Notes: a model not told the origin generated them from the letters alone. DNA of 64,000 nt from Yuukianura sp. NJ FZ-2021 (GCA_046563655.1 CM102283.1:7378001-7442000); one strand, 5' to 3'. Positions 19,148-62,890 are shown, counted from the stretch's first letter. A program made the numbers and translations.

Positions 19148-22380
<3,233 letters not shown>

Positions 22381-30487: not shown

Positions 30488-32404
30488 TTACACAGCGACT
30501 TCACCGTGTCCATTTCGAAGTTTCGGCGTTGGAACTATGGATCCTTTCAAGGTCATTTCAATCGAACTGTCTTCAATAAATCCAGCATTGGCTGCACTCG
30601 GATACTGCACATGCGCAGCAGCATTGCACGCGCATGAGCATCTACTCACTTTGAGATCTTCGATGTGCTGGTACATTGACTCCCCTAACTCCGCTTTGTC
30701 CAATCCAATTTCCTCGTTTTTGTCTGTAACTCGCAAAGCCAGTCCAGGGATCTTGTCAATTGTAAATGCCAAAATCAGAGTGACAACAAATGCCCAAGCG
30801 AATCCTGCGCATGTGTCGATGATCTGCAAGTACATTTGTTCCCAATGGCCGTCCAGCCATCCTCCCTTGATCTCTGTTCCATCAACTCCCGCTACTTCTT
30901 TTTCGGCAAATACTGCCGTTAATAGATTCCCGACGATTCCACCGACACCGTGAACACAGAAGACGTCAAAGGCGTCGTCAATGCGCAAGTACTTTTTGCA
31001 AGAGAGACTGAGATTGCAGGTCATTGAGCCCACGATGCCAAAGACCATACTGGATGCTGGTGAGATGTAACCACTGGCGGGAGTAACTGCTACTAGGCCA
31101 CAAACGGCTCCACAGCAGAATCCAAGTGCTGAGAATTTCCGCGGTTTTATTTTGACGTAGTCAAGCAAAGCCCATGTAAGTCCACCGACTGATGCTGATA
31201 GATTTGTTGTAACGAAAACGACGACTGCGCGGTAGTTTGGTGAAAGTCCGGAACCAGCGTTGGCCACTAACCACCCAAACCTTAACAAAAATTAACTTAT
31301 TTTTCTTATTCTGAAATTTTTGAGAAGCAAAATGCGAGTTGAAGTTGATACACTTGTTTGAATGTAACGAACTTACCAAATAAAACTACACCCAAGTATG
31401 ACCTGTTTCAAAATTTAGTTTGTTAGGGTTTTAATTTTACTTTTTTTTCGAATTCAAATTTGAATTTTTTTTTTGACAATCATTACGTGCGTCATGTTAT
31501 GCGGTGGTTTGTCTGTTGGATCTTGACGTTTCCCAAGTACTAAAGCGTAGGCCAACGCCGCAGCTCCCGTTGAAATATGAACTGGCGTCCCGCCGCCAAA
31601 ATCCAAACCTGCAAAGAATCGAGTAATTTTTTATATGATTTTGAAAATTTTCATTTTAATTCAAAAATTGTCAAATTTCAAGTTCTTACCGCCTTCTACG
31701 TAGAGCCAGCCATTAATATTCCTGAAAACGTGTTAACAAAACCATTCAATTTAGAAATGCCTGAAAAAATGGAACTTTCCCGCCAAAATATTTTGTATAC
31801 TTTACCAGGTCCAGTAAGTAAGAAAGTCAAAGACAAAAGTTGACCAGAAGAAAATGAAGACTACTGCTGGAAGGAGACGGGCCCTTTCGCTAAGGGCTCC
31901 CAAGATGATTGTAGGTGTAATGCAGGCAAACAGGCAGTACCAAATGGAAACCAGCAGCGCGGGAACTTTTGGATTCGAAATTGCCGGAGAATCGCCAATG
32001 TTCCTCAGGAAGATATGATCCAGATTGCCAATGAACGGACCTCCAGTGTTGCTCAAACACAAGGAGTAGCCAACCAAGTACCACTATAAAGGAATCACAA
32101 CAATTAACACTTGAATTAATCAGTAATTAGTAAATTAGTAATTAGTTAAATAATTGTTAATTAGAATTACCTGGATCGACACTACTGCAACAGAGTAGAA
32201 ACAAAGAATGGTCAGAATGAGTGAACTTTTGTTAGGTGCGAGGCCATTGTAGAAAAATCCAACGCCCGGGACCATGAGCCACGTGATTGCAGTACAAGCC
32301 AGAAGCCATGTCACATCTCCTGGATTGTACTCGTGATATTTCGGCGTGGTGGATTGGAGCGTCGAATTTTCAAAATTCACGGCGCGAAAAGTAGTGTCTT
32401 CCAT
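30488..32404 (-). CDS. Ammonium transporter of Amt/MEP type (fungal MEP-like), 6 exons
   Basis: PGDVTW...WLMVPGVGFFYNGL, FACITP...GALSERARLLP, YWTWNINGWL, GLDFGGGTPVHIS, WFGWLVANAGS, GAVCGLVAVTPASGY, DDAFDVFCVHGVGG, IKGGWLDGHWEQM, GLDKAELGESMY. Microexons at 31690-31721 and 31377-31402. Confidence 0.92.
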
Positions 32405-34014
32405 GATTTCCACTAGACGACTAAAAATACGACAAGTTTTAAGAATCGATGTAGTTGTTACGCAACATGCAACATTTTTCTAAGCAGTTGACCTTCATTG
32501 CACGAGGGAAAATAATTAACGTAACAAGGTTTAGCAATTCTTGGTAATGGGGGATGATGGGTCAGGCATGATCTTGCCATTAATTTTTTGTTTCAATTTC
32601 AGGGTCAAGTTTTGAAACTTTTTTCTTCTTTTGTTGAGGTAGCACTGTAAACTAAAGATGCATTTTTAGTACATGTTATAGTCATTGTTCCATGATTTAT
32701 ACAAATTTTATTATTAGCTTCTGCATCCTAATATTTTAGTAACTTACTTACTCTATTTTAAGTTTTAAAACTTGTTCCACTACATACTTTTTGTTAGCTT
32801 CGAAAAATTCTGCAATTTAAAAAAAAGGTATTAATTCTAACTTAATTGAAAACAGGTTAAGCAATTTTTTCCAAAAATTGGACTCGTGTGACTTTTTTGG
32901 GAGCTCATTTTAACTAGATTCAGACTTTTTTTAAAATTTACATTTCCTTCAGACTTATTGTGTCCAAAAATAATTTTTGAAAAAAATTCTAATTAATTTT
33001 AAAAGAAGTTATTTCAGGATGGGTGTGTCCGTTTCCTATTTACCTTGGCGTGTTATATTTTTGCCTTATAGCGTGCATTATGCATGTCAAAAATTTTGTC
33101 ACGAAGTTGGCATAAAAAGACGACGAAAAAATGAAAACTTTTCCCAGGAAAACTTTTTCATTGCGTTCGGACTGAAAGAGGAATTCATTTAGAATGAAAT
33201 GTTAAACAAAAATTTGGGGCGTTTTGAAATTTTTCATACTTCAAGATGTTCCTTTAATAAATTTTGCACTTTATTTTGCAAATTTTGAAAGATTCAAAAG
33301 AATTCAAATTAGAAACGTCTCCACTTGGAGTTGATTGATATCATTGGAAATTCCATTCTGAGAATCATAAACTTCGCTTGTGATGATGATGACGTAGCAC
33401 TTGAATCGCCCCCGCCAAACTTTAAACTTGGAAAGAACGCTGATCATTACACTTGCAAAAACATGCATACATCATCACCTCCGATTCGCTTAACTATTTT
33501 TTTCTTTCAGTTTACTGCAGATTCTCGTTTTGTAAAACTTTAGACAACTCTAAAGACAAGATGCCTTTGTTTTATTTTCAGATTATCCCAATTTTTTAAG
33601 AATTTGACTCGTGTTTCATCGTTTCCAAAGTATTTTGCTTAATAAGCCAAGGCTAAACCCCAACTTTATAACTTCGTATAAGAGATTCCGACTTCTCACT
33701 TCCCAATCGGTGTCATCCTTTCCTAAATTTTAAAAATAGATTTTGATCTGAACAGGATAAGAAGATTTGGAGTATTTTTAGAACTTACTGCACGGAGCAG
33801 GAACTTTCTCGGATGGAACGGGGAGGACACAGTCAGTGGACGGAATTCCACAAGTCTCGAATGTTCACACTTTCAAACAATTCCTCCATTTTATTTTGTA
33901 CCCACACGTCATTCTCAACTTAATTGTTCTTCTACGTCTTAATTCTACTTTGATTACTTTCAACAGTTAAGTTCAATTAGAGTTAACTCAGCAGTGTTTC
34001 AGGTTCACAACGAA

Positions 34015-37902
<3,888 letters not shown>

Positions 37903-38421
37903 ATTTGTGAACTGGACTTTTGGACAGAAATATTTTCTTTGAGTTTACTCTATTCGAAATTTTTGTTTTTGCAAATCAAATGTTCGTTCGTTGTCCCTTT
38001 TCTAAAAATTACCGAATAAAATGAAGCATCGTTTAAAATTTTTATTGTCCATCACGTCAAACTTTGATTACTTAATTTCAAAAAAAATATCATTAAAGTA
38101 AACGTTGAAGTAAACGTAAATTTTAGTGAAGTACAGAATTAGAATTGGAAAAATAGAAGTTAAGAATGACATGCAGAGAATAAGAGGAAGGAATCATTTT
38201 GGCATAATGAATTAGGTTAGGCTTGCCTAACTTATGAATAGTTAGGAAAGAAAGAAGACAAAGTAAGAAAAGTTAGGCTAGTTTAAGCTAACCTAATGTT
38301 TAAAGTCGAAGCTAAACATGAAAGTAATAGAAATTTAGAAATTATAAGTTTTAAGAGGGAATCAGCGTTCGAACGCATGTGTGAACAACACCAGGACCTG
38401 CGCAATGCGTTAAGGTGGACT

Positions 38422-39290
38422 TCATTTGTAAACTACGCGCGGTTTAGGTGGTGCTGCATTCCTTTTGTAGACAACCCTAGGTTTTGGTGGGGCGGGTTCT
38501 CTTTTATAGACAACCCTAGGTTTTGGTGGCGCTGGTTCTCTCTTGTAAACAACCCTAGGTTTTGGTGGGGCGGGTTCTCGTTTGTAGACTACCCTTGGTT
38601 TTGGTGGCGCTGCTTCTCTCTTGTAGACAACCCTCGGTTTTGGTGGGGCTGCTTCTCTCTTGTAGACAACCCTGGGTTTTGGTGGCGCTGCTTCTCTCTT
38701 GTAGACAACCCTCGGTTTGGGTGGGGCTGCTTCTCTCTTGTAGACAACCCTTGGTTTTGGTGGCGCCGGTTCTCTCTTGTAGACAACCCTGGGTTTTGGT
38801 GGGGCCGGTTCTCTTTTATAGACTACTCTGGGTTTCGGCGGTGCAGGTTCCGGAAGTGGACTTCTCTTATAGACAACCCTGGGTTTTGGTGGGGCGGGTT
38901 CCCTTTTGTAGACAACCCTGGGTTTTGGTGGTGCAGGTTCTGGAAGTGGACTTCGTTTGTAGACAACCCGGGGTTTTGGTGGTGCTGCACTTCGCTCCAC
39001 CCGTTCGTCACTTTCCTCGCTTTCCAGTGAAGCTTGGAGCTGGAGATCTACCTCCTCTTCCGATAGATCACCATTTTCTAAGGTTCCATCATCCTACACA
39101 CAACAGTTTAAATCAAATAATGTTACATAATTACATAATCTAATAAAACATTGAATTCTTTAGTAAAAAAAATCATTAAATAAGAAAGACTGATTTTTTC
39201 TTAAGTTGATCAAAGAGGTACCTCGACATTTGAAGCTGTAGCAACGAGGAGGGCTGCAATAAAAATCAGAATGCCCTTGTAGGGCAACAT
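38422..39290 (-). CDS. Secreted multi-copy peptide precursor (246 aa): signal peptide, acidic propiece and 14 x APPKPRVVY-K(R)
   Basis: Exon 1 39290-39222 MLPYKGILIFIAALLVATASNVE with phase-0 gtacc donor. Exon 2 39093-38422 DDGTLENGDLSEEEVDLQLQASLESEESDERVER followed by 14 repeats separated by KR. Minus-strand AATAAA at 38046-38041. Confidence 0.88.
38425..38991. repeat. Coding tandem repeat, 39-bp unit (two units of 51 bp), 14 copies
   Basis: Repeated ...TTGTAGACAACCCTGGGTTTTGGTGG... with variation at synonymous and spacer positions only. Confidence 0.95.
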
Positions 39291-39330
39291 TTTAGACCTG
39301 AATTGTTGGAGTGGACAATGATCACAAAAT

Positions 39331-39468
39331 GCTGAGAAGTTTGGAATTGCCGCTTAAATACGAAAAATACTTCCGAAGTTACCCCAGTTCTTACCCAAAT
39401 CAACCACTAAAGAACTACTCCCAGGATAGGATGTGGTCAATTAGACAATTTCCAGTGACAAATTTCCC
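39331..39468 (-). promoter_or_regulatory. Candidate core promoter of the peptide precursor, with kB-like motifs
   Basis: TATTTAA at 39360-39354, about 27 nt upstream of an Inr-like TCAGC (39335-39331); GGGGTAACTTC at 39385-39375 and GGGAAATTTG at 39468-39459. Confidence 0.4.
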
Positions 39469-42400
39469 AATTATGGCGTGCAATTCTACAAAAAACACCA
39501 AGAATCGTATTTAGCACCACGATTAACTTACCAATATTAGGGAAACTGATTTAAATAACTTAAACTGGATAAGTTTTAGTTCTAAGTTGACCAAAATGTT
39601 AACCACTGTTAATTTTTATAAACTTACTGTTAAGAACTTAATTAACAAATGCAACTTGTGGGTTACCAACATAGATGAGCTATTTTACTAATAAGTAAAG
39701 TGATTGATGATGTGCTGCTGCAGTAGTTTGGTGCGTTGATGAAGATGAGGTGATGAAGAAGCTTATTAGTAGGCCGCAAGAGCCGAATTGTGCGGCTGCG
39801 GTGAAAGCACAGAAAAAAGCAACGGTGTGATACGGCCTTTACATTTGCTGAGATTAGAATTTTTTTGTAACAAATTTTTTGTAACCGGTTTTTAGTTGCC
39901 ACAAAATTGCGACAAATTTGATAATTCTAAAACCATTATTTAAAGACTAATTAGGAATAATCAGAACAAATGCGGCCAAAAAATACTTTAATTTTGCATT
40001 TGCAAAGAACCACACGGAGAAAAAAAACGCAAAGTAAGTTTGCCAAACTTTCACTTTTAAGCCTTTACGCTACCATACACGCAGAAAAAATTCCATAAGT
40101 TTGCGCCACATTCAAAATTCAAAAAAGCATCAATTCAAAATTGTAGATTTTGATGCGTGCCTAATTTATCCAGCAGCGAGTGCCATCTCTTATCCTTCCG
40201 ATCGATATTAAATAGATTTTGGAATTGAGATAAAACCATGCATGCATCAATCTCCCTAAATGAATGAACTGCATTACTTACTGCATACCTACCTGACTAC
40301 TACGCAATTCAAAAATCAAAATCTCATTGGCGGGAGTGGGTAGCAACAATGTGAAGTTGATGGCGCATGCGGAAGCTTCGCTCGTTTCATCTTGATTAGT
40401 CATGCCCGAAAGTTATTTTGATGATTATGCTCTCTATATCACAGGAAGGGACGCGGAGATTTGGGATAAAAATTGAGGAATTTATGCACATTCCTGAGTT
40501 CGCTCCTGATTCTTTACTCATACATCAACAACTAAACAAAGAGGATTAACGTTAAACCAAGAAGAATTGTTGATGAATGTAACGTTAACATTTAACATTA
40601 GTTTTTGAAGGCTCATTTCTGGAAGCTCCTTTCGTCACACAAAGTCTATTGGATCCTTTCTTCTCTGTCTTCACAAGAAGTGAATCTTGTGCTCCAGAGT
40701 TGATAAGTTTCTCTCGTCAGATCAACTTCAGAAGACCACTACGTCCCACGTCTTTTCTCTTGTTTCAACGTGGGTAACTGCAACAATATACACTAATTAA
40801 TCACGTTAATCCACCACCCACCAGGAAGGAATCTATCTCAACGGAACTATCGACGTAATCTGCATCGCTGCGGTATCGTGTGCGGTAAAGACACAATTTC
40901 CTATCATAATCTTTAGTGTTCTAATCAAATCTTCCTCTAAACATATCTTGTTCCTCCATATCTGACCACCCGTAATCGACGATTGCTAATCGTCCAGTAG
41001 TATTGTCACTCTCGTTAGTTGTCACTAATCGTAATCATGCCAGTATTTTTGAATAATCGATGACAAGGAATGTCAGTTATGCTTATTTGCATATTCAAAA
41101 AACGGCGCGAATTTCCCCATTTTTGAGGGATCGAATTCGTTTACATTGAGTTAGAACTTATTCCGGTTATCCAGAATTTACTTAGATTTTTAATCATAAT
41201 CGGTTAGGGTTAACCCAAATTTAAGCTCTGGCAAGGATTATAACGTTTTCGGACAGTGCGAATTTCCATTGCAAAAATGATGTATTTTTTTTTTCAAAAA
41301 CGTAAATGTAAACATGCGTCATCATGCCTCATACGTTTACATGATTAGGGGGTGGATTCGGTCGCCAGCCCTTGACTTTTCTTTGTTAAGTCGGATTAAA
41401 TATTGAAACTTTTCAATTCCAAAGTCCGAGAAAGTTTTAAAATACTTTTTTTTTGAGTCAGTGACTAAAAACAGAGATGAGAGTTACTTTTAAGCCTTTG
41501 AATTTGTTGAACATGGGTCTTCTCAATTTCAATTTTTACATAAGTTTCAACTTTTGAAGGAAAGAGTTAGAGAGGATGGGGTCAAAAGGTGAGAATTGAC
41601 TGGGAACTACACTAAAAACGTCTTCATTTCACATGATGATCATGAAGACCATCATGACGAGCACCCACTTGTCCTCAAAATTCTTCCCTTCTGTCTTATG
41701 TCTTACCGTTCCGTTAAGTTTAACTTAAAAATAAGAGCAGTAGCTACTTTTTAACAGTCAAGACTAAGATGGGCCGCTGGAGGTCAACTCAGGTCGTCGT
41801 CATCCCCATCCGTATGTCATCTCTGACTTTCAAATGAGCTCCCCTCCTCTAAAAACCACAAAGACATTAATGGAGTCAGGGGGAAAAGGATTTTCTTAAT
41901 TTTTTTTAGTTCAATAAATTGAGTTTTTAGGGAGTGACTGTCGTGGTCCCTATGGTTTTAAAAACGACTGTAGTTATGTACACTATGGGGTCATTGAGAA
42001 GGGGCACTTGGATTTTGGTTTCAGTTGGTTTAGTTGTTGCGTTTTGAAGGTTCAGTGTGACCTCGATGTGACCTCTGAATGACTTCCAACGAACAGTGTT
42101 CAATGTTAGCTTTTTCCAGGCTAGGACGACAGTTCACTCTGCTTGGTCTTTGGACTGTTCATTAATTTTTATGATGAAAAGTCGAAAGAAGTGTTTATGA
42201 CAAGTATTTTCAAAGATTTAGTAAAAAAGGTATTACAAAAAGTTAAACCGTTTTAATGAATTCGGTCCCTAACAAAATCAATTTTTTTTAGCCATTCACA
42301 CATTTTGTCGCAGACTGGCGGCAAATTCAAACGTCAGCCTGACTGTTCTATTGATAAACTTGTATTTTATTATCATTTGCCATAATAATATTTTATTATC

Positions 42401-43560
42401 CAACTATTACATATTAAAGTTAACGTTCGCGGAAAGTATGATTTGGTGATTTACAACGTATTAAACGCGGTTAAAACTAATTTTTGGTTTTGTTGTAGTT
42501 ATGGGGTAACGTGAGACACGGTTCGTTGACCTGATGAGATATTAAGTATCAGTGTCATTGAGAAGTGACTAAATATAGTAGTAAGTGTCTAGTGACTGTC
42601 ATAATCAGGAACCAATTGATAATTGATTGGACTATTTGTAGGGCTGAACGTAACCTTCACCTTCCTTGTCGGAGGTTATCCAGAATCTCCGATTTGTTTT
42701 GTCTGACGTAGCGACAATATCGTATACAGCATTTCCAATGCATTTTTAACGTTATAGACGTAGTAAAAGTACTGGTTGTGGTGGGAATATGGGATAGGCC
42801 AAATCAGTAGCATGATTAGATATCCCGAATTATCCTATACACACTTCAATTCAATTCTTTATAACTTTAACTTTCAAGTAAGTCACGTGCCGCGCAATCT
42901 TTTTAACATTTTCATTCTTCATTCATCACAATTTCGCATCTTTTGAATTTCCCGCTTTCGGATTTCAGTGGAAAGTTTTGTATTTACGTCGAAATTGACT
43001 TGAAACGGAACGTTTTTTTTCTGCAATCATCTTCCCGCTGAAAGTCAAACTTAAGTTGAATGAAAATTTGGTTCCAGGAAATGTCCAAGTGTTGAAATTT
43101 TTTATGTTTACACAGGATGTTGAGAGGTCACCGCGTTTTCCATAATTTTTTTTTGTGGGGACTAAAACTTTTAGTCCAAAACCGATGACTTTGGAGCAGT
43201 TTATGGATTTTGAGTTTGAGTTTTTTACTTGTAAGTTTTCTAGTCCTGATTTTTTTTGAGGATTTGAAAGAAATGATTTTTAAATGCTCTGTTGCGGTTA
43301 CATTCATTTCCCATCTAACGTGTACAAAAAAGTACTAAAAGTTCTATGTGATTTGACTGGGTAAGGAGTCTTAATTATTCTTCAGACTTAAGAAAAAAAA
43401 ACAATTCACAGTGGAGGATCCATTAGAAGGACGACGACGTAGTTAAATGTGCTTGCGGTTGAGTAACAATTTTTTCATTTTTTGGTTGTCGCTTCCTGAG
43501 CATAAGTTCATGTCGCATCTCCAAGTCCCCGTATAATCTTTTGCTAAGTTAATTCTTCCA

Positions 43561-43671
43561 TATACTGTGGGGATTCGGGGTTCGGGGGGTATTCTGTGGG
43601 GATTCGGAAATATACTGTGGGGATTCGGGGGGTATACTGTGGGGATTCGGAGTTATGCTGGGGGGATTTTT
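43561..43671 (+). repeat. G-rich tandem repeat (TATACTGTGGGGATTCGG-like, about 5 copies) upstream of the first srp coding exon
   Basis: Directly visible repeated GGGGATT cores. Confidence 0.75.
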
Positions 43672-43826
43672 GTTAAGACTTGAGATGAAGATGCTTAAGA
43701 AGTCTCTGAGTAGTTATCTTCTTTTTGAAGTAATTGTTAATTATTAATTAAATAATAATTAGGAGCCCAAGAGGAAGGAGGACGTGAACCACAAGGACCC
43801 ACCCACCCCACCACCACCACGAAGCG

Positions 43827-46800
43827 ATGGACTCTGTTCAAGAAGACTGCTTGAGCGCTGCTACTGTTAGTAGTATGCGGGCACAACGGGTGGGGATCGA
43901 CTGCTCTCCGTTGTCACCCAGTTCGATTCCAGGAGGGGGCCACAACTCTCCTGTCGAATCGTCGTCAACTGTGGCCACTGCGGATGATTTGCAAGACCAA
44001 ACTGAAGACGATATCCAGAATCCCACGTCCCCTGCTATCCTCGTCCAGATCCCCAAAATCTCTCCAGTCATCATTCTGTCAAGTAGTCCGCACAATAACA
44101 TGAGTGTCAGCGCTGGTCTCGGCACTACGCTTGACCCCAACTCATGTTCCGCAGAGTCCGAATCCGATTCGTCATCAGACTCCGCACTCCATCACTCTCT
44201 CCATATCCACAACAATAGTTTGGCTCATACGAGTGTCATTGTTGAGAATGGGTCACACTTTGCCCTTGGCGACCACCATCCAATCCCCCTGCATCATAAT
44301 AATAACAATGGAAATCTCCAGTTTCGCAAACCGGAAGTGTACCAGTACTTGCTGAGCAATATGGGAGGACTGGCAGAGGAACATCGTGGTCACCATGGAA
44401 ACGACGAGGATGATCTAGTGATGCAAGATATCAAGCCGAATCCACTGGACTTGGTGGCACATCATGAGCAATCGCATCACTACCACTCTGGTGGACTCTG
44501 CAACAACTCGTCTGCGCAGACGCAGCAACATCAACAACAAAATCTTCATCACAACAATTCGCCTAACGGGTCCTCCAATCACCCGCACCACCACTCAGAA
44601 CATCCTCATCACCAACCGGCGCATGCTCACAACGGAGGATCTTCTTCTAGTAACAGGCAAGCATTTACGCAATTATTTTCGAAAACCTACAAAATTTTGA
44701 AAAAACGAAAATAGATTGCAGCTAGCTTCTTAGTCATGTGATTGTGCAAAGTTTAAGTAAAAGATTCTGGAAATTTTAAACTTTGTACATGGCCGCAAGC
44801 AACGCGGTCAGGTTTGAACTTTGACCAAACTTTTTTTTTTGTTCGTATTTTTGAAAACTTTTGTAAAGGAAAGTTTATGATTCAACTTTTCTTAAAAGTT
44901 GTTTTGTTTTTTCTAAAAATGGACTTTTGGGGTAATATGAGAAACAAAAAATGTTGTTGGACTTGAGTCATACCGGTCATGGTTGCCTCAAAGTTGCGTT
45001 GTTCTGACTCACTTTCAAACAAGAATTTTCGTTTTTGGGAAACTTCTTTTGAAAAACTATTATTTTGAGAAAAGTTTGTTTACTTTTGGATGAGTCACTG
45101 TATATTTTTGGTTTTTGTGTGTTTAGGAGCGGTAGTTCGGAGGATGGACATCACATTTACAGCAGCCTGGAGCCCCACCCCCAAGGGCCCTACAACTCTC
45201 TCATCTACACCACCTACAATCTGGGTGGACATGGACATCAGGACCTCCCTTCAACCCCCTGGCAAAACTCTGGCTCATCCGCAGGTATAACTAAAAATAA
45301 AAGTGGCCCTTAAGTACCCCTCTGTCATTAGGACACTCACTTCAAGTCTTAATCGTCTTTTAATTTAACTTTTTTTCAGATTTGGAAGGTTATAAGCAGC
45401 CCAACTTCTTTCCGCAGAACTCACTTCCATCTATCTTCGGCAGAAATCGGTTCCAACCTTATCCCAACAGTCGTAAGTTCTTGACACGCAGAAATACGCG
45501 CTGTTTTTCAAAATTTTGTGAAAAAAAGTTCTGATTTTTAAGTAATTTGTCGAAGCTAGCTTGAAATTTTGGCAGTGGTGTTACAAATATTGTTGTTTTT
45601 TGTTACAGAATATCACTCTGATGGGTTTTCGCAGTCCGGAACGTGGCCAGGGTACAATTTGGACTTGGCCAACTTCAATGTAATTGGAGCTGGTGGTGGG
45701 ACGGGTGGGAACAGTCATAGCAGCTCCACTTCAGCTTCCGGTGGGGCCTTATCCACCAACCACGCCTTCAATTCCGCTGGAAATGTGAGCAGCTCAAGAG
45801 GAGGCGGAGTTTTGTCGGGACTCATCAAAGGCCAATCCCCACATCTCACCGGTAAGCTTACGTTTTTACATTAACTTTTATAACATGAATTCATGAATTC
45901 TATAGGCGGCAAAGTTAGTTTTTAAATTAATCAAAATTTTAATTCCATATTTCGAAATTTTGAATCTCTTGGTTAGACTTTTGTATTTGACTCGTGCGGC
46001 ACGAGTCGTGCCGCAACTGCAACGATAGGCTTTTATCTCGTTACACGTCAAATGGCGCTGTATTTAAGTGGATAAGAGATTAACCACGTTATAGAAACCA
46101 AGTTACAAGAATTAGTTAGGCTTAAGGACTTTGACACTTTGGTATAAGTGTTAGTTATCACTTGTCACTTTACCAGAATTGAATTCCAATTGCCTTGTTT
46201 TTGGCTTTTGTTATCACCTCAAATTAGGTTTACAGTAAGTTCGTAATTGTAATTAGTTAGGGAATGCTTGGCCACGGTTTGCCGCCGCAGAAATGAGATA
46301 AAGGTGACCAGTTTTTTGAAAAGAACCGCCGCCGCCTTGTGGTCCATTTAAATATGGTTCAATTAATCACTCACACTTTGGGTTTTGGGTTAGAGAATCC
46401 GTCTTATCTAAAGTATTGGCAAGCATTGGCAATTTACAATTCCTAATTTACAATTGATCGTTAATTTGTTAGGGCAATTTAAATGGAGAGAGGAAAATTA
46501 CTCCGATTTGTTTAGAATTTGAATTTTGGCGGCGGGGGATGAGGGATGTTTTCTGCTTAAGATTTTTGTAAGCTTTGGGCTGTTCAATTGTGCAAATTTT
46601 GTGCTGGAGTTAACTTTTGATGTATTTAGAAGTTCGGATGTCTGAGGATTAGATGATGGTTTGAATTTAATGGCGGATCATATTGCATTGTTAAAGTTGA
46701 AATGGATGTTTAATTGTTTATTGACTTAATGGTAATGGGTTTCTATTGTTTCTGACAAGTTCAGGTTCAAGGTTCTGGTTAACTTTCTTGTGTTCTTAAG

Positions 46801-49800
46801 TTGAGGCGATTAGTAATCAAAGGATTTCAGTATTTTCTGAATACGAATTTGACTATTGTCAATTTGAATTTGTTAAAATCATAAGCAAAAGTTTTGCAAT
46901 TTCGAAAATAGTTGAGTAAAAATTGAGTTGTTGGTTTCAGTAGCTCATTCGTTAGAATTGAAGCAGGATTTTTTGAAATTACGTAAGTATGAACAAGTTT
47001 AAATTTTGTTTTTGGAAGTTGCTTTTTCTACGCAAATTGAAAAAAAAAAATTTTTTTTGGTAGTTGCGTTTTGGTATCAGTCATTTTTTAACGGAAATAA
47101 CATATTTTTGAAGATTAGTTTCAAATTTTATGAATAGACACAATAGACAGTAATAGTTGACCGTGAATTTCAATTTGAAATTTTCAAATTGCATTTTGAA
47201 GTAGTGAAATGTGAAATGACAATGTGGCATTTTTATTTGTTGAATGTCATAACCATTGCGGTAGTTTCAAAATGGACTTTTGGCGGGCGTTTTTGAAAAC
47301 ATTGAAGTTGGAATAGTAAGAGAAATGCCGAGTCAGCAGAATTTAATTGGGTAAAAGTTGTTTTTAGCTTAAGCTTTTTTTTGAAGCTCAAGATGTTTAT
47401 GCAATGGTTTGCGTTTTGTTTGGCCGTGGTGTCATTTTTACTACTGGACTTGTGTAAACTGAAAAAATTGGACTTGGCAAATTTTCGTGTCCGGGAAATA
47501 AGAATGTAATTAGAGTTTAACCATAAGTTTAAATTTCAATGGAGACACAAACTCTGTCCTTTGTTAATGCTCCAAGTGTGAGAATAATTTTGTGGTTTTC
47601 AAAACTGTAGGCCATTTTCAGTTTCATTTTTTGAAGCTGGACTTTTAGCAGGGGCTTTTGGACGTTAGGGGAGGTTGAAGTTGTAGAAGAAGGAAAATGT
47701 ATAAGTAACTAAACTTAAAGTTGGAAGATCATTAAGTTTTAATTAGTTTCATCATTATCGCCACCAGCTTCTTTTTCTGGGGGAGGATGTTAAGTTAGCA
47801 TAGTGTTTTTCAGAGGACAGTGTTAGGAAAGAGATGCATAGACTTTGTAATTTTTTGGTTTCTTGGGAATATTTTTACATGAAACGTTAGGTTAAACCTA
47901 ACCTTAAAAGATGAAGATGAGTTTAAAAGTGGATGAGATCTTCCAGGAAGTTATGGTTTCTTTGGACTAAATTTTTTTTAGTCAGGAGATGCTCAATTCA
48001 GAAGAGTAGCATTGGATTTTGAAAGTTTCTGAAGAAGTTATCTTGAGGAGCGGATTGAGGTTTTGAAAAGGCGGAGTTCAGAGTTGACGTAGTTCTCAGA
48101 ATTTGAAAAAAAAAGAGTCAAATTCAATATTAAACTTAAGCGTTTGTGTTTTTGGTTGATCTGTTTCAACAGAATTTGTAAGCAAAGAAACCTAACTTTT
48201 AGTTTGGTAGAATTAAAAGTTGAAAGTTTTTACATGGAGTTAAAGTGAGACTCATGGACGATTGGAGGATGTTGTCTTGTCTGTCGATGGTATAAATAAA
48301 ACGGATATGATTCCAATTCTAAAGTTGACCACTAAAGTTCTAATCTGAGTCTTTCAAGTCCCTTGAGTATATTTTTCGTTTCTAAAAACTCATTTCGGAC
48401 CAAAATGAAAAAAAAAGCGGAAATGAGCATGACTTTTGTTTTTGGTCGTAACATGGATCATGAGAACAGAAATGCTTCATTTAAAAAAAACTATAAGAAA
48501 GAAAATACTAAACAGTCACATTCGAAGTTTTTTTTTGATGAAGCTCTTCCGACGTTAACCTAATTTGAAATGTTAGTTTTGAAGTTTCAGCAGTGTTCTA
48601 ATGCCACAAAATTCAAAATGACTAAACTTCAAAATTTATGACGCAAAGTAACGTGAGTGATGAAAAATGTTTTGAACATTGAATTGAATTGACGTAGCGG
48701 TTTTTGCAATTCAGCAATTTTGAACAGGCGTGCTCTTCACACTCGAGAGTTACTTTTCCAACACATAAACTTTAAAAACTTTAACCTATACGCCACTAAC
48801 CTACATTTAATTTCAATTTTGTAAACATTCAAGTTTTGAGTTGGACAACACATTACAAGTCGAGTAGGGCGGTAAAGTTAACACTTTCAGCATTGCAAAT
48901 TGCAAGTTGCAATTTCTCCGAAGTTAGTTTGTTTTTAAATTCGAAACTTTTGATGTTTTTTTTTGCGAATAGATCTTGTTTCTGCAATTTGAACTTTTTT
49001 TTCGAACTTTGAAAGCAGATCAGTTGAGGTCAAACCGGTTGGTGTTATCTGCAAGTGACAACAGTTGAGGAAGGGAGGAAATATTTGAACGCCTTTTGTT
49101 TGAAATGCTGTAAAGATACATTTTGTAATGTTAGACTTTCATGAGAAAATGTTAGGATTTGGGAAATTGTTGTGGAAGTGTGGATAAGAGTGTGTCGTAA
49201 TCTGATCTGTTGTTGATCTTTGGATCTTCATCTATCTTCTTCAAACTATTCTTCATTTGTCTTTATCTTTCACAAACAGTCCACTGCACTTTCCGTCAAT
49301 TCCGTCGTTCAACTTCTGTTTGACGCCTCATCTTTTTTCAAAAGACAAAAGAATGTTAGGATTCAACTGTCCTAATGTCTTGTCATTTGGTTACTTTTAC
49401 TGGAAAAACAAAATGCAGTTGACATGTTTTCAAACTTTAGGATTTTAGGATTAAGGATTCACAAAGGATTTCGTATTTTAGAGGGAAAAGGGAATTTCGA
49501 AAAAATTGAAATTTGAAAGTGACGGAGCAAGTTTTGAGATTTTAGAAATTTGAAATATACTGAACTTTTCTTAATTACTATGTTGGTATATTTTGAAAGG
49601 GGAAATTTTGAACTATATTTTAATTACTAATTGAAATACTTTGGAAATGCTAACTTTTATTTGTTAATGTTAAATTAAAATGTTGAAATTTGAATTGTGC
49701 CGCCTCCCAGCAGTGGAGATGAGCTACGAGGAGTGGGCAGGCGCAGAGTCAAGGGAATGTGTCAACTGCGGCGCGGTGTCAACACCGCTGTGGCGCCGTG

Positions 49801-51706
49801 ACGGAACTGGTCACTACCTCTGTAATGCTTGTGGCCTCTACCACAAAATGAACGGAATGAATCGGCCTCTTATAAAACAACCCAAACGAACAGTGAGAGA
49901 AATCAAAATTTCAGAAAATTTTCACTTTTGTCATTTTTTAAAATTTAATTTGCTTTCGTCTTGTCGTTTTGACCGTGTTCTTTGTTTTATCCTGTATTTT
50001 TTTTTATCCCACTCCTCTATTTTTTTTTTAAATTTTGCTTACTGCACAAAATGCAAAATCATTTTTTGGCAAACCTTGCCCTGAGGGAGGGATTTTGACA
50101 TTGGCGGGATTTTTTTTTGTGGGAAAGTTCGGTTTTACGTAGGTTTTATTGAATTTTTATATGATTTTTTTTTGGTGAAAAAAAGATTTTGTCGGATTGG
50201 ATAATAAACAGTTGATTATTTTTGGTTTTGATTTTGATTTTTTAAAGAGCATGAACATTTTTGTAGTTCCAATTTTTTTTTACTTTCAAAATTACGAAAT
50301 TACAAAAACATAATAGAATCCGTCGTAAATCCGTCTTTATTGTTTTTGTTATGCGCAGGTTCAGGGACTTACGGTCAGAAACAACGAGACGGATTTGCGA
50401 CGCAGACGCAACATAAACAAAGACTGGTACGTGAATTTCATTTTTTCATCCATTTTTTTCTGGTTTTTGATTGGTGTGGTATTATTTATCAAATTTTAAA
50501 TAAAAAATTGCATGTCCTTTTCAAATTTTTTCCTAAAAAGTATCTTTTAGTATTCGCAATTTTGAAAAATTTGTATTCCGGTAATGATGTTGTGACATTT
50601 AGATAAAATTTCCTGTTTCACATTTTATGATTTTATGGGTTCATTGACCTCCTTTACTTAAAAATTTGAAATCTTCCGCCTATTTTTGTTTCTGCATGGC
50701 TTTCAACATGTTTTGCTTTTTTCATGTAAATTGGTTTTTACCTAATGGCTTTTGGTTTGTGTTGTCTTTGTGGCTTCCTGTCATTTACCAAAATGTGCTT
50801 GGAAATGTTTTATGTAAAAAGTACAAAAAAAAGTGAACTAATTTGTAAATTTTTTGATGATTCAAGAGCGCAACTCGTCGTTTAGGCCTCATGTGTTCAA
50901 ATTGTATGACGGAGAGAACATCTTTGTGGCGCAGAAATCAGTTGGGTGAACCAGTGTGCAATGCATGCGGACTTTACTACAAACTGCATGGCGTCGCACG
51001 ACCCCTGACGATGAAAAAAGATTCGATTCAAACTAGGAAACGGAAACCGAAAAATAATAGCAGCAATGGACCAGCTTCGAAGAGTGGTTCGAAGAATCAG
51101 CAAGAATCAGCAGCAGCTCAAGCGCAAGCGCAGAGTCAAAATCCGAATAGTTACGCTGCACTTTCTGGAGTCATGGCTGCAGCTCATCATGGCGGTAACT
51201 CTGGTCCGCCTACCGTATCATCCTCTGCTACCGGTAAAAAAATTAAATTCAGGAGTTAGTTACAGTCGAGCCTCTCATTGCGCAACACGTTCTGATTGGT
51301 TGGTTTAAATAAACGTTTTCGCGCCTACGGTGCGGCTTCAAATCAAACACTTCTGACATATTAGACCACCTATAACGTTTTTCGTTTTGTTAAAAAGTAT
51401 AATTCCTCCAAAAAAGTTAAGGTTTATGGTTTTCCGCCGTTAGGAAAAATTGAACAAAAGTTGAGTAATGAGAAGCTCGACTGTAGTTAAGTCTAACAAT
51501 TCAACAATTATTGGAAATTTTGAGTTTTGTTGTATGATTTTTTTTTTTTAGATTTGCTCAAAAGTGTTTTGACTGCTGGAACTGTAGGGAATCTCAATAA
51601 TCATGTTGGAAGTTTGAACTTGATGAAGACGCCTCTGACACTCTCATCACTTGGAGAGCAAGGTTACAAATCCAATCCTCAAATTTACTACACCCACGCG
51701 ACCTAA
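43827..51706 (+). CDS. srp: Serpent-like GATA factor, two-finger isoform
   Basis: N-finger exon 49711-49892 [47 protein letters not shown]-finger exon 50867-51233 [13 protein letters not shown]...TSLWRRN...[17 protein letters not shown] (IKQP, TSLWRR and KKDSIQ are srp-type). Upstream exons 43827-44656, 45127-45284, about 45380-45472 and about 45609-45851; last exon 51552-51706. Confidence 0.82.
50359..50426 (+). CDS. srp: Alternative fingerless srp exon, mutually exclusive with the N-finger exon
   Basis: gcgcag|...|gtacgt, 68 nt, phase 1 to 0 exactly like the N-finger exon (182 nt); encodes (G)[22 protein letters not shown]. Confidence 0.7.
51263..51483. mobile_element. Tc1/mariner/pogo-type MITE (221 bp) in the last srp intron
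   Basis: TIRs CAGTCGAGCCTCTCATT and AATGAGAAGCTCGACTG (16/17 match), flanked by TA on both sides; no coding capacity. Confidence 0.8.
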
Positions 51707-57584: not shown

Positions 57585-60500
57585 ATGGATGACATTTTTG
57601 AAGCTGTAAAAAAGAAAACAATCGTCGTTGGAGTTGAAAATATTGCGGATAGGTATGCTTTCTTTTGATTTGTTAGAAATGTTGTCACCATTTTACCATT
57701 TATGCTGCCATTTTCTCCAGGATTTTCAAGCCTTGCGAAGTTTGTCATCAACAGTTCACGCTTGCGGAATTAGTATCACACAAAAAGGTGCATAAAGGAC
57801 GTCTTCCAAATAAGAAACCAAAAGTTGACACAAAGGGCTCAACTATTCTAAATGGACCCTGGAGGAACCCTATCTACACTTGTCCAGTTTGCCCAGATAT
57901 CTTTACAAAGGAAACGGAATTGCGAATTCACCAAATTCAGAAACACTCTTTGAGTCTCGTCGCTTGCTTGAAGGAAACGGAAATCCCCGAAACTTTCAGA
58001 GTAGTTGGTGACATTTCCGGAGAAGCTGAGAAGAATTCAACGTCCAATCAAAGCAAGCGATACAAGTGTCGCTACTGCGATAAGGTCTTTCGTTTGTCAA
58101 GCCAGTGCAAGTCACATGAAAATGCTCATGATGCTCACCCTGACCCCAGCAATGCTTCTGTGATAACAACGAAATTTAACGACGTACCCTCAACTTTAGA
58201 ATCTTCTAGTGATTTGTTACCTCTTCCGTCAGAATTAGAATCCAACCAGTCGGAAGCCTATGTCGAAACTAGAGGCCTAGACGTTCCAGCCTCTCAGTCA
58301 ACAGGAGATACTCCCAAGCCCTTGCCTACTTCGGACTTCGACTCAGAAACTGACCTCGGATCACAATACAACGCAAAGACAGATTGCCATGAGATGGATC
58401 AACATCAGCAGGTCGAATCCATCACCACGTCAACATCTCAACTAGAGTACAACGGAATGGAAATGTCCAGCGCCGTGATACCTCCGCCGTTCCCATTCGA
58501 ATTCCAACAGTCAAGCGAGTTTCCGTCCCGAAACGACGTTGATGGAACGATTGGTACTCCACAACTATTGGGAAACGTGTCGGTCAAACAAGAACCTCAA
58601 GAGCCATGCAATACTTTGTCACTGGAAAGTACTCCATTGATACCCAATGGCGATGTCGTCCCTGCAAAATGGTACGTTGCGTCTAGTCGTAGTAGATTTA
58701 AGTTGTAAATTGGAAACTAATTGAAGTTATTGTATTTTGATTGCAGTGATGAAAAACGGCACAAATGTTTAGTATGTGGCGAAGAGTTTCCGGAGTTGGA
58801 AATTTTCCCGCATGCCAAAACCCATTTGAGAAGAGGTCAGAAGGAATGTGACCATTGCGTCTACAGGGCCAACACCACAGGGGATTTACGAGATCACATA
58901 TCAAAGCATTATCAAGTGAAGCCCTACCGGTGTCCCTACTGCCCTAACGTTTACGGTTGGCAAAGCGGCCTCAAGAAGCACCTTGTAACGCATAGCACTG
59001 GTGACAAATCCTTCAAGTGCAAAATGTGTCCCATGACATTTTCGGCTCAGAGGGAATGTCGTCGTCATGAACTCATTCATGAGGATATCCGCGCCCCATT
59101 GTCGAATTCAAAGAAGAAACCTAAACGCAAGAAAGAAAAGGCAATAAAAGTGATCAAAATCGAAGCACCGGATTTTGATGCGTCTGGAAACCGATCAACT
59201 ACGGAAGATCCAAGGTTTCCAAATGTCCAGCAATATTCAGGTGCCCAATATCCATTGCATTATAATAACTACCCACTACACTCACAACAACATCAACAGA
59301 TTACTTCCTATTCTACTCCAGATACCAGCTTCACTCACCAGACACAAAGTTATTATGATGTCAACTCGTCGTCATCGTCAATGTCAATGGATTCGTCATA
59401 TAACAATGTAAACTCATCAATGGTCTACACCCAGCAACCGCAATCACAACTCTCCCAACCACAACCAGAAGTGACGAACAGGAACAACTCATGGCCTGGA
59501 ACACAACAGTCCAACTATTACGGAGATTACACGAATGAATTTAGCTCTCACCAGCAACAACAGCCACAGCAACAACTGGTTCAGCATCACAACAACTGGA
59601 GTAGTTCTACAGACGAACAACAGCAGATTGGAGCTTATCATAGTAATCACAACTTTGATAATCATGGACAACAGGCTCAGTCTGGAAAAATGGAGCAACA
59701 TGCATTTCGAGAGCCAGGAGATCTCAGGTACAACTTAGTAGACTACAGAAAAGCTTAATTTATTCAATTTCTTCTAGTTTGCATAAACAATTAGTATTTA
59801 ATTGTTAACTTTACAACGTTAGGGAAAGCGAAACTTGTAAGACCTGCGGCATCGAGATTTCAATGAGAGAGTTGCCAACACACATCCGAAGTCACATTTT
59901 ACCTGGACAGAAAGGCTGTTCCTTATGCAAGTACAAATGCAATAGCAGAGTCAACCTTGAAGAGCACTACAATATTCACTACGGTCTCAAACCTTATCTC
60001 TGCAATCTCTGCAATTCCAGGTGAAATCACAAGTTTTTTGTTACGCCAGACTGAATTATGGAAGTTGTTTATCTAAAGTTTGTGTTTTTTGTTTTAGATT
60101 TTCTCTACGGAGCTATTTGCGAACACATACACAGCAGGAGCACCAAAGCTCTGAAGGATACCAGTGTCGATATTGTAACAAGCGTTTTGTCCGTTCCAGT
60201 CACCTTAAAACTCACGAAATGATTCACGAAGGGCAAGGAGAGGTACTGCCACAACGAGAATCCAGTTACGGGAATTCTGGCCATGACTCCGACTCTAATT
60301 CAAACTCTAACGCCTCCTTCCGTACTCCAATGACACCAGATCGGAGTTGCTCTTCTACAGCAACTTCCAGTCCCTCCAACTACGGAATTTACTCTCGTTC
60401 AAACACGGATTCTCCGCAGTCCGTTGCATCATCAACTGTTTCAACACTCACAGCTAAGGGAGAATCACATTGGAGCGGACCTACAAGTGAACATCCAGAT

Positions 60501-62890
60501 CAAGGTCACATGGCAACTACTACTCCTTGGCCTCAATACTTCAACACGCCTCAGCAAGGTCATGACCAAGGTCACTCGAACGCCATGTACTCCCCACTTG
60601 TCAAGTCGGATGTCAATTGGCCACAACCACTCTACGATTCTACGGCTTGGCAACATCAATCTTCAACCCAAACTACTAATCCAGTTTATCCTTTGACGCC
60701 TCAGAAGATAGATACTTCTTGGTCTGAGTCTTTCAATGGATTCAATACTGGCAATACCCCTGGCTCAGGTACACCCAGTGCCTCTGTTCAAGACCTCTGG
60801 GCTGAGCTGCATTTTGAAGAAATGAAGTGGTTTCCGGAATCGTCAACTGGGTTTACGGCTGATGGGATTCCAATGATAACAGAACTTGGTCCACTAGACG
60901 GGTTTTCATATACTGAAATGCTTCACAACGCAACAGCTGATCTCCCAAATTTTGGAAGTACGTTCAATCAATATTCGAAATCGAATGAAGTGGCATCAGG
61001 ATCGGCTGAAATTGTACAAAACACGGCAGAATCCGAGCAATGTTTTCAACAAGTTCAGGCGAAGAGCGAAAAGAAAAGTGGCAAAGGAGAACGTGAACGG
61101 CTAGAGAATCAAACGCCACAACTAAACCGAAGTTCTTACAATGCTCGCGGAAATGGAACGGCAGCTAAGTCGAGTAAACGTCGTCACTTGAGCGCAAAGT
61201 CCATCAAACGAATTCCAAGTGGAGAAATTGATACAGATGAATCAATTAGCGTTTCTCCGAAAATGGACATCTCGGCGGGAGAGGATGGAGAGACTGACGA
61301 CGAGTAAGTGGGATTAATTTTAGTTATTAATTTAGTTAGTTAGTTTAGTTAGGTAATTCATTTAGATTAATTAGATTAATTTTGATGGTCAGACTCCAGA
61401 GTAACTGATAACTTTTGTATTGTATTGTTTCAGCCAAGATGCTTTGAAGAAATGTTTGACATGTCATGTCAGAATTCCGCGGAAAGATCTACTGGACCAC
61501 CTTAGAAGTCACATAAGTCCAGGTCAACGGACATGTGACATCTGCCAACGGACGTACTGCAATCCACTGACTTTGAAGGAACATATTCATATTCACTACA
61601 AACTCAAGCCCTACAAATGTGCCTTTTGTGATGCGAAGTTTAGTACAAAGTATTCTAGGAAAACACACGAAGTTTTCAACCATGAACAATGCAAATCATC
61701 CGTAAGACTTCAACTCATCAATCAACTCGTAATTTTCAAATTAATTTTTTTTTTGTTTTTCTAGATTGTTGTTTGTCCTTTACCGGCCTGTGGAAAGTTT
61801 TTTGCTATTCGCTCGGAACTGGCCAAGCACCTAAGAGCTCATGCCAAGAAAAATGGAACGCCAGTTATTCAGTTGAGTTCTCCAGCAGTACCGCCCAAGA
61901 ACTTGAATGGTACTAAAAACTTAAGTGCTTCAAAAAACTCGAGGAGAGGCAGGAAGTCGTCTGGAAACTCTACTAAAACTAAACGCAATGAAAATAGTAC
62001 TGGAACAGCACAAGTACAACACAGTACCTCAAAATCAGTGAGTGAAGTGGCATCAGCAGCATCCACGTTCAAAATGGAACAATTCAAAGATGTCATGTCG
62101 CGAACATGGGAAGTTCGGCTGAAGGATATTGGCCAAACGTAAGCATTTCATTCATTCCATCTTAGGAAAGTTTTGAAAGTTAAACGTTTTAAATCTTTCA
62201 CAGAATGAAGAAGGAATGTCCGTTATGTAAGAAAGAAATACTGTTGGCAGATTTCCTGGACCACAAAAAGAATCACATGGAAGTGTGTCACCATTGTCGT
62301 AAACCAGTTCCCGTCACTGCTGTTGTGACTCATGGCCAAAGTCATGTCGGAGATGAAATCGTGTGTGAAATATGTGGTACACAGTGCAAACAACGGTCAA
62401 CACTTTGGGAACACATGAATGTTCACCTCAAGTTGAAACCGATTCGATGTGTCTACTGTGGCCAAGGATTTGCCTCCAGAACCTCCCTGAGATGCCACTT
62501 CCTCGCACTGCACACCAAGTTCCGTCCACATTCCTGCAGGTGAGGATCCACTTTTCAAAATACTGCCAGTATTATACTGGCAGCATCTTAGATTTTAGAA
62601 CAGACTTTTGCATAACTAATTCGCCATGGTCAGATTTTGGTTTTACTTTTCGGTAGTGGTAGTGTCCAGTACAGCACTTTTCTTTTTGTTTAGTCCTGGT
62701 CTTATTTTTTAGTTTGCTTTTTTGTATTGATTTTTTAAGGTTTTGTGGCAAATCGTTTGTTCAGCACACAACAATGTTGGCTCATGAATTGATTCATTTG
62801 GGAACACAGTGTCCATCCTGCTCTAAATCCTTCACTACCCGTAAAGAAGTCCAAAATCATCTACGAGAAGAACATTCAATGGATAGCTGA
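57585..62890 (+). CDS. Multi-cluster C2H2 zinc-finger protein (about 20 fingers)
   Basis: ATG 57585 (MDDIFEAVKKK...) splices in frame through ORFs 57788, 58721, 60021, 61420, 61873 and 62205 to TGA 62890; many CxxC...HxxxH motifs with KPY/KPI linkers. Several upstream exons (about 56985-57436) look like 5' UTR. Confidence 0.8.

Follow-up and report, generated by a model that had tools for sequence, protein, structure and literature searches.

In yeast alpha-factor and the fungal Kex2-processed repeat proteins (KEPs), maturation is described as a succession of three reactions: Kex2 cleaves on the carboxyl side of KR, the basic residues are then taken off by Kex1, and XA or XP dipeptides are eliminated by Ste13. 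The same three-step scheme has been proposed for apidaecin, with its RR-EAEPEAEP junctions, and for ant hymenoptaecin, which combines EAEP with RR/KR or RxxR sites. Up to 16 copies are known in fungal alpha-pheromone precursors, the copy number of ant hymenoptaecin has been proposed to amplify the peptide dose, and DPP4/DPF-3 are unable to cleave adjacent prolines. As regards springtails (Collembola), a homology-based survey of antimicrobial peptides (PMC10051947) names diapausin, Alo, diptericin, defensin as well as cecropin, five families of which none is proline-rich or multi-copy. The authors suspect that further peptides, non-orthologous ones, are still hidden. A survey of neuropeptides in non-pterygote hexapods covers, in the passages searched, known families only.

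Here we compare with these systems a locus found in a window of 64,000 nucleotides, the window being the whole stretch of DNA that was analysed. The best explanation of this locus, to which we give as a whole a probability of roughly 0.65, is that a springtail carries here a genuine protein-coding gene whose product would be a secreted polyprotein of 246 residues, matured by a convertase, a carboxypeptidase and a dipeptidyl aminopeptidase in the style of apidaecin and alpha-factor. The gene lies on the minus strand at 39290-38422, is split into two exons and is accompanied by the following elements.

39353..39360, minus strand: TATA-like box, TATTTAAG, 27 nt upstream of the Inr-like TCAGC, putative
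39331..39336, minus strand: initiator-like element, CTCAGC, with its A at 39333, putative
39222..39290, minus strand: coding part of exon 1, MLPYKGILIFIAALLVATASNVE, an ATG and 22 codons, 69 nt, phase 0, predicted signal peptide
39094..39221, minus strand: intron, 128 nt, GT..AG, donor GAG/GTACCT, acceptor TTGTGTGTAG/GAT (the slash marks the splice point)
38992..39093, minus strand: the part of the acidic propiece encoded by exon 2, DDGTLENGDLSEEEVDLQLQASLESEESDERVER, which terminates in the R-x-x-R site RVER
38425..38991, minus strand: array of 14 units, each a spacer of X-Pro or X-Ala dipeptides followed by APPKPRVVY and KR, with K alone in the last unit
38422..38424, minus strand: stop codon TGA, immediately 3' of the Lys of the last unit
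38041..38046, minus strand: AATAAA, 375 nt past the stop, the sole canonical polyadenylation-signal match in about 620 nt downstream, putative

The first-pass annotation of this DNA had placed here a spliced protein of 246 amino acids with a separate signal exon, and everything it described is present in the sequence at the positions it gave: 23 and 223 codons are joined in phase 0 across the proposed intron. This intron has a GC content of 0.22 between exons of 0.46 and 0.52, it contains stops in all three frames, and read-through from exon 1 terminates after 3 codons. Exon 2 (39093-38422, minus strand) consists of 223 codons and TGA, contains no Met, and its frame begins exactly at the acceptor TAG; it is therefore untranslatable without an upstream exon. 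Another in-frame donor is found 6 nt upstream of the first (AAT/GTCGAG). This site is a poorer match to the donor consensus; splicing there would cost the propiece just two residues, Val-Glu.

Exon 1 is the best candidate for the upstream exon. A scan of both strands of 37500-43800, 6.3 kb around the array, restricted to ATG ORFs of 20 codons or more whose N-terminus is hydrophobic, ranked it as the strongest signal-like ORF (score 3.55; sole other ORF over cut-off, 2.46). Its Kyte-Doolittle maximum reaches 3.39 over ILIFIAALLVA. Signal peptidase would likely cleave after Ala19 (A-T-A/S), the signal peptide having been assessed from hydropathy and the -3/-1 rule rather than with a trained predictor, and the cleavage site by eye. 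Upstream of the ATG, TATTTAAG and TCAGC are candidate TATA-like and Inr-like elements; the position of the latter would imply a 5' UTR of about 43 nt. The 1 kb upstream contains one half-site and no match for any of four full kB-type patterns, these patterns being derived from insects and possibly not applicable to springtails, together with two GATA sites vs 1.36 expected per kb.

The organization of exon 2 agrees with what had been claimed for it. Among the 36 residues that precede the first core, 14 are Asp or Glu, and the R-x-x-R site stands directly before the array. The core APPKPRVVY is identical in all 14 units; it is followed by KR in 13 of them and, in unit 14, by a Lys and the stop codon, so placed that the end of the array coincides exactly with a predicted peptide boundary. 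The spacers read, in order, SA, SPLPEP, EP, SPLPEP, EP, EP, EA, EA, EA, EA, EP, EP, EP and NA, and every one of their dipeptides is of the form X-Pro or X-Ala (18/18). Units differ in length only by the four-residue insertion SPLP, which amounts to two X-Pro dipeptides and thus maintains the dipeptide register. All amino-acid variation in the array is confined to the spacers and is made of Pro/Ala exchanges plus Ser/Asn/Glu and Leu. Tandem Repeats Finder assigns the array a period of 39 and detects further, higher-order periods at 78 and 117. Within the 64,000-nt window no paralogue of the array and no other notable tandem array related to it were found, and Rfam gave zero matches.

Nine of the 27 nucleotide sites of the core vary among the 14 units, and all nine are synonymous. 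Over core plus KR (33 nt, 13 units) at least 16 substitution events are needed when events are counted as alleles minus one per site, a count that is robust to block duplication, and 16/16 are synonymous. If one base of the consensus were changed at random, the change would be synonymous in only 25-29% of cases, so that the probability of the observed outcome lies between 2.7e-10 and 2.9e-9 when the transition/transversion weight is set from 1 to 4. Mean pairwise pS amounts to 0.484 (maximum 1.08) with a pN of 0, and the copies, by this measure of divergence, are not recent. In a six-frame control on 13 units, the peptide is invariant in a single frame, the proposed one; the five others give 13, 13, 13, 4 and 13 different peptides, and stops interrupt four of them. 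The restriction of change to synonymous sites, combined with invariance in the proposed frame alone, shows each APPKPRVVY copy to be under strong purifying selection as protein, as had been proposed from the first inspection; this evidence is drawn from paralogous units within one gene.

From these features we infer that the transcript is spliced, that the protein is secreted and cut at every step of the following scheme, and what peptide results. The signal peptide would be removed, probably after Ala19, and a proprotein convertase of the furin/Kex2 type would then cleave after RVER and after the 13 KR pairs. The furin rules of Nakayama reportedly call for Arg at P1 and basic residues at P2 and P6, and by these rules R-V-V-Y-K-R would presumably also suit furin in the constitutive pathway. 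A carboxypeptidase would next remove the C-terminal Lys-Arg, or the lone Lys in unit 14, and a dipeptidyl aminopeptidase of the DPP-IV/Ste13 type would strip SA, SP-LP-EP, EP, EA and NA from the other end. Trimming would halt at Ala-Pro-Pro because an enzyme of the DPP-IV type cannot cut between adjacent prolines; with the spacers removed up to this stall, all 14 units would yield the same free-ended nonapeptide APPKPRVVY, with a computed monoisotopic mass of 1025.602, a pI of about 10 and a net charge of about +1.8. The literature bears out the two general statements on which the first-pass annotation had built this scheme: the exact KR, X-Pro and X-Ala grammar matches the three steps published for apidaecin and alpha-factor, and likewise those for ant hymenoptaecin, and the stall before Pro-Pro agrees with the published statement on adjacent prolines. 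An array that starts behind R-x-x-R, ends on a K-stop and varies solely in spacers that preserve the register would be hard to explain unless its boundaries were true processing sites.

The peptide had also been reported as unrecognised, and no search returned an already characterised family to which it would belong. Pfam gave no family, its best score, 31.5 bits for Lysostaphin_N, lying under the 60-bit cut-off; this identity was rejected as a sub-threshold artefact in which one 13-residue repeat aligns to another. A word-indexed search of 5.8 billion proteins with exon 2 as query left 0 of 8000 scored candidates (lengths 122-391 residues) at E <=0.01. With phmmer, 90 proteins among 1.84 billion representatives were retrieved at E <=0.001, headed by shark, cockroach and fish proteins whose own 13-residue repeats are unrelated. 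A script screen of all 90 found PKPRVVY in none and flagged seven for identical fragments delimited by KR or RR. Sixteen were inspected whole, and the first 13 of these all proved to be other periodic repeat proteins, mostly not peptide precursors. One match of 132 residues (P0085, E 5.5e-4) carries four PRVVY strings, but its 13-residue unit is otherwise dissimilar and lacks the dibasic and X-Pro grammar; it was taken as chance. Similarity at the level of layout was seen in a hypothetical protein of Paraphaeosphaeria (P0058), where a signal peptide precedes KR-EPEP/EAEP-ANVRFNN repeats, in a hypothetical protein of Sistotremastrum (P0066), with a signal peptide and KR-delimited units in PLVVY that terminate on the last Tyr, and in an Octopus protein (P0079) with KR-delimited SPSKSYSEIIG units; the layout-level analogues with named sources among the 90 matches are thus solely fungal or from Octopus. 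Since the phmmer library includes springtail proteomes, an orthologue of similar core would have been retrieved from it if annotated, and missed if unannotated.

Searches beyond the protein libraries were equally negative. In JGI metagenome contigs, 219 pattern matches were obtained and tblastn confirmed none of them. In the full text of 8.4 million papers, APPKPRVVY, its pieces of 5 to 8 residues and the 6-mers APPKPR, PPKPRV and PKPRVV were not found as such, the sole occurrences of PRVVY being in papers on FimH. The passages searched of the non-pterygote hexapod neuropeptide survey contain no similar string and zero occurrences of 'PRV' or 'VVY'. No similar precursor in springtails is reported in the literature searched, to which the supplementary lists of PMC4770511, PMC11549390 and PMC6339444 did not belong.

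The genes surrounding the array indicate its host. An ammonium-transporter exon (30488-31291, minus strand), whose gene lies about 7 kb from the array, has its best five matches in Allacma, Folsomia and Orchesella at 54-63% identity, its best non-springtail matches being Mortierellomycota fungi at 54-58%. For a PHTF exon (20737-22041, minus strand), the top three matches come from the same three genera at 36-40% identity; springtail matches alone reach 98-99% query coverage with E <1e-40, and insect matches have E values of 1e-22 or weaker and mostly partial coverage. Dual-finger GATA factors of animal type are also encoded in the window, together with a kinase and C2H2 zinc-finger genes, and the array gene is located between the kinase and a GATA factor. 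From the two neighbour genes tested (2/2) we conclude that the window belongs to Collembola, more precisely to a springtail without close kinship to Allacma, Folsomia and Orchesella.

Tandem repeats often keep several frames open, and an antisense frame that runs for 247 codons here (38287-39030, plus strand) could suggest that we are dealing with repeat DNA, non-coding or in decay, whose open frame is a by-product. This antisense frame gives 13 different peptides in 13 units, however, the 16 substitution events are all synonymous in one frame only, and it is this frame that continues, in phase, the signal-peptide exon; we find such an origin barely credible. Purifying selection alone cannot separate a peptide precursor from a structural repeat, and the product might be conceived as a secreted, uncleaved structural or adhesive protein of cuticle, egg coat, spermatophore or glue. 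Pro, Lys, Arg, Val and Tyr abound in its 13-residue period, decapeptide-repeat adhesive proteins have a composition comparable to that of such a Pro/Lys/Tyr-rich array, and the first 13 phmmer matches inspected whole were periodic proteins of other kinds. A structural role would leave unexplained why the variable residues occur only in strict X-Pro/X-Ala register, why R-x-x-R stands ahead of the first unit and an acidic propiece ahead of the array, and why the K-stop falls on a peptide boundary; moreover, when a secretory protein rich in proline exposes Lys-Arg pairs, 13 of them here, convertases are expected to cut there. An uncleaved protein is accordingly judged improbable.

A fungal ancestry has been considered as well, in which a KEP gene would have been acquired by horizontal transfer and would now be served by an animal convertase and dipeptidyl peptidase. 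The layout is exactly that of the fungal KEPs with a Ste13 signature, the phmmer analogues point to fungi or Octopus, and the neighbouring ammonium transporter has close fungal matches. The peptide itself occurs in no fungal protein found and in none of the 90 phmmer matches, which were screened for PKPRVVY, however, and the gene, flanked by animal genes, is interrupted by a spliceosomal intron of high AT content and preceded by a TATA/Inr-like promoter. Since the same layout is also known in animal precursors, convergence is the simpler account, and we regard a transfer as very improbable. It is less far-fetched, though in our opinion still unlikely, that the processed nonapeptide is a receptor-specific signal, be it a neuropeptide, a peptide hormone or a contact or aquatic pheromone, with its Ala-Pro-Pro N-terminus protecting it against aminopeptidases. 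Precursors with multiple KR-delimited copies are the norm for neuropeptides and fungal alpha-pheromones, and nine residues that stay invariant in 14/14 copies despite a mean pS of 0.48 suit a short ligand. Nine residues with a charge of about +1.8 are also small for an antimicrobial directed at membranes or ribosomes, and the 1 kb upstream has no kB-type motif, with the proviso that these insect-derived patterns may not apply. On the other side, X-Pro/X-Ala spacers are unusual in arthropod neuropeptide precursors, the amidation signal Gly is absent and no Pfam neuropeptide family matches. No similar string occurs in the passages searched of the non-pterygote hexapod survey either.

Returning to the processed polyprotein as the preferred reading, the function of its peptide can be discussed on the condition that processing takes place. 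A secreted defence effector, in haemolymph, gut or exocrine gland, would then have nearly an even chance; a hormone, neuropeptide or pheromone-type signal is possible but more doubtful, and other roles take up the rest. X-Pro/X-Ala spacers and an acidic propiece are a hallmark of apidaecin and hymenoptaecin and would speak for a defence or exocrine effector; such pro-spacers are also typical of cecropin, melittin and frog-skin peptide precursors. The high copy number suggests a bulk demand for the peptide, and the invariance of nine residues across old copies would favour a receptor ligand. Proline-rich antimicrobial peptides are characterized by high Pro and Arg contents and PRP-type motifs, and they typically measure at least some 14 residues. 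APPKPRVVY, with three Pro in nine residues, one Arg, one Lys and no PRP motif, is weakly cationic, and would fit these peptides in composition, not in motif or length. The antimicrobial option is weighted lower here than in the wording of the first-pass annotation because of the nine residues, the charge of about +1.8, the lack of a PRP motif and of the apidaecin pharmacophore, the zero matches to kB-type patterns and the nature of the host, a springtail and not an insect in the strict sense. Tentatively, and with considerable doubt, one may envisage a class specific to the springtail lineage, made of very short, dipeptidyl-peptidase-resistant, proline-rich secreted effectors, supplied in quantity by a polyprotein of 14 copies, whose origin would be independent of hymenopteran apidaecins and fungal pheromones. 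If true, this would be the first multi-copy Pro-rich peptide of host defence, or of defence signalling, outside winged insects, and since a chain of nine residues does not have the length that the known ribosome-tunnel mechanisms require, it would have to hit another, new target or act in a new manner.

The architecture is textbook and the gain in knowledge is moderate. The locus illustrates a type of gene that escapes both homology surveys and standard ORF tracks through a split signal exon, a main exon devoid of Met and the lack of homologues. Should the peptide be made, it would constitute a cheap and easily synthesised candidate of nine residues with a built-in protease-resistant N-terminus, and its precursor would be a third independent case, beside Hymenoptera and fungi, of mass production of one peptide by means of KR and X-Pro/X-Ala.

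The comparison with known systems can be summarized as follows. Arthropod neuropeptide precursors such as those of the FMRFamide type, allatostatin-A and orcokinin carry many short peptides separated by dibasic sites; as a rule their copies are not identical, and most have a C-terminal Gly that serves amidation. The springtail gene shares with the multi-copy members of this group a signal peptide on its own exon and short dibasic-delimited peptides, and differs from them by identical copies, the lack of Gly and spacers of the dipeptidyl-peptidase type. Neither Pfam nor the passages searched of the non-pterygote hexapod survey gave a match to a known neuropeptide family, and Pfam and phmmer gave none to the five collembolan antimicrobial families named in PMC10051947.

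Ant hymenoptaecin multipeptide precursors resemble the gene in having a single intron, the entire array in one exon, EAEP-type spacers and RR/KR or RxxR sites, but their units are glycine-rich domains of 97 residues instead of nonapeptides, and there is no homology. Fungal KEPs, with which the yeast alpha-factor precursor is grouped here, are described as secreted proteins with identical or near-identical repeats flanked by KR, RR or KK, and the springtail precursor answers to this description, including the Ste13 signature in 18/18 spacer dipeptides. Signal peptide, pro-region, KR-flanked repeats and XA/XP dipeptides follow one another in an identical layout, the released peptide is unmodified (a prediction in the present case), and nine residues fall in the 9-24 residue class. 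KEPs are nevertheless defined within fungi, whereas the gene neighbourhood here is that of an animal, with 2/2 neighbours best matched in Collembola, and neither core nor propiece is shared with any fungal protein found.

As in apidaecin, a Type II PrAMP, a signal peptide and a propiece are encoded here ahead of a tandem array in which one short cationic peptide rich in Pro recurs many times. Apidaecin precursors are pre-pro-polyproteins whose repeats are split by a dibasic site and an acidic X-Ala/X-Pro spacer of the EAEP type, RR-EAEPEAEP in apidaecin and KR-EP or KR-EA in the springtail, where 13 KR pairs are combined with EP, EA, SPLPEP, SA and NA. Apidaecins are antibacterial and trap release factor on the bacterial ribosome; they are given as peptides of 15-34 residues, found only in bees and wasps and bearing the conserved C-terminal pharmacophore PRPPHPRL. 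The springtail core has nine residues, reads APPKPRVVY in 14/14 units and lacks this pharmacophore, and sequence homology is nil by Pfam, word-indexed search and phmmer. On these grounds the precursor would resemble those of apidaecin, hymenoptaecin and alpha-factor and yet belong to none of their families, and it can be proposed as a new, non-homologous precursor of well-known layout in a lineage from which the literature searched reports no other example.

The following features flank the peptide gene in the window (coordinates are those of the window).

About 8100-11400, minus strand: GATA-type zinc-finger regions
30488-31291 and 32135-32479, minus strand: intron-containing gene for an ammonium transporter
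34112-37524, plus strand: serine/threonine kinase gene
43577-43668: short G-rich tandem repeat (period 21/43, about 4 copies)
43800-44700 and 49670-51260, plus strand: GATA-type zinc-finger regions
57677-62543, plus strand: consecutive long ORFs carrying many C2H2 zinc fingers and Gln/Ser-rich linkers

In a protein similarity search, the ammonium transporter retrieved five springtail proteins as its top matches (54-63% identity), directly followed by a long series of Amt/MEP proteins from Mortierellomycota and other fungi (54-58%). Insect proteins were absent from the 120 matches listed. This order of matches suggests a fungal-type transporter that would either have been gained by a springtail ancestor or have been kept in springtails alone.

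The kinase gene lies on the strand opposite to the peptide gene, its end being separated from the 3' end of the latter by about 900 nt. Its exon at 34112-34447 looks NUAK/AMPK-related as judged by eye, and its tail is a low-complexity, Pro/Ser/Lys-rich stretch of 808 codons that includes a 69-nt tandem repeat (35791-35964). The C2H2 ORFs could constitute either a single large zinc-finger gene or several.

Among the 90 phmmer matches to the peptide precursor, three hypothetical proteins resemble multi-copy peptide precursors that have escaped annotation, each having what looks like a signal peptide ahead of identical repeats bounded by KR: P0058 from Paraphaeosphaeria, P0066 from Sistotremastrum and P0079 from Octopus vulgaris, with the respective repeated cores ANVRFNN, ..PDIEPLVVY and SPSKSYSEIIG.

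At least two genes for GATA-type zinc-finger transcription factors are found within these 64 kb. Both fingers of one of them were seen, at 49674-50084 and 50861-51259, and a His/Gln-rich exon (43788-44714), with the G-rich repeat located just upstream, may belong to this two-finger gene. This arrangement is similar to the clustered GATA genes of insects.
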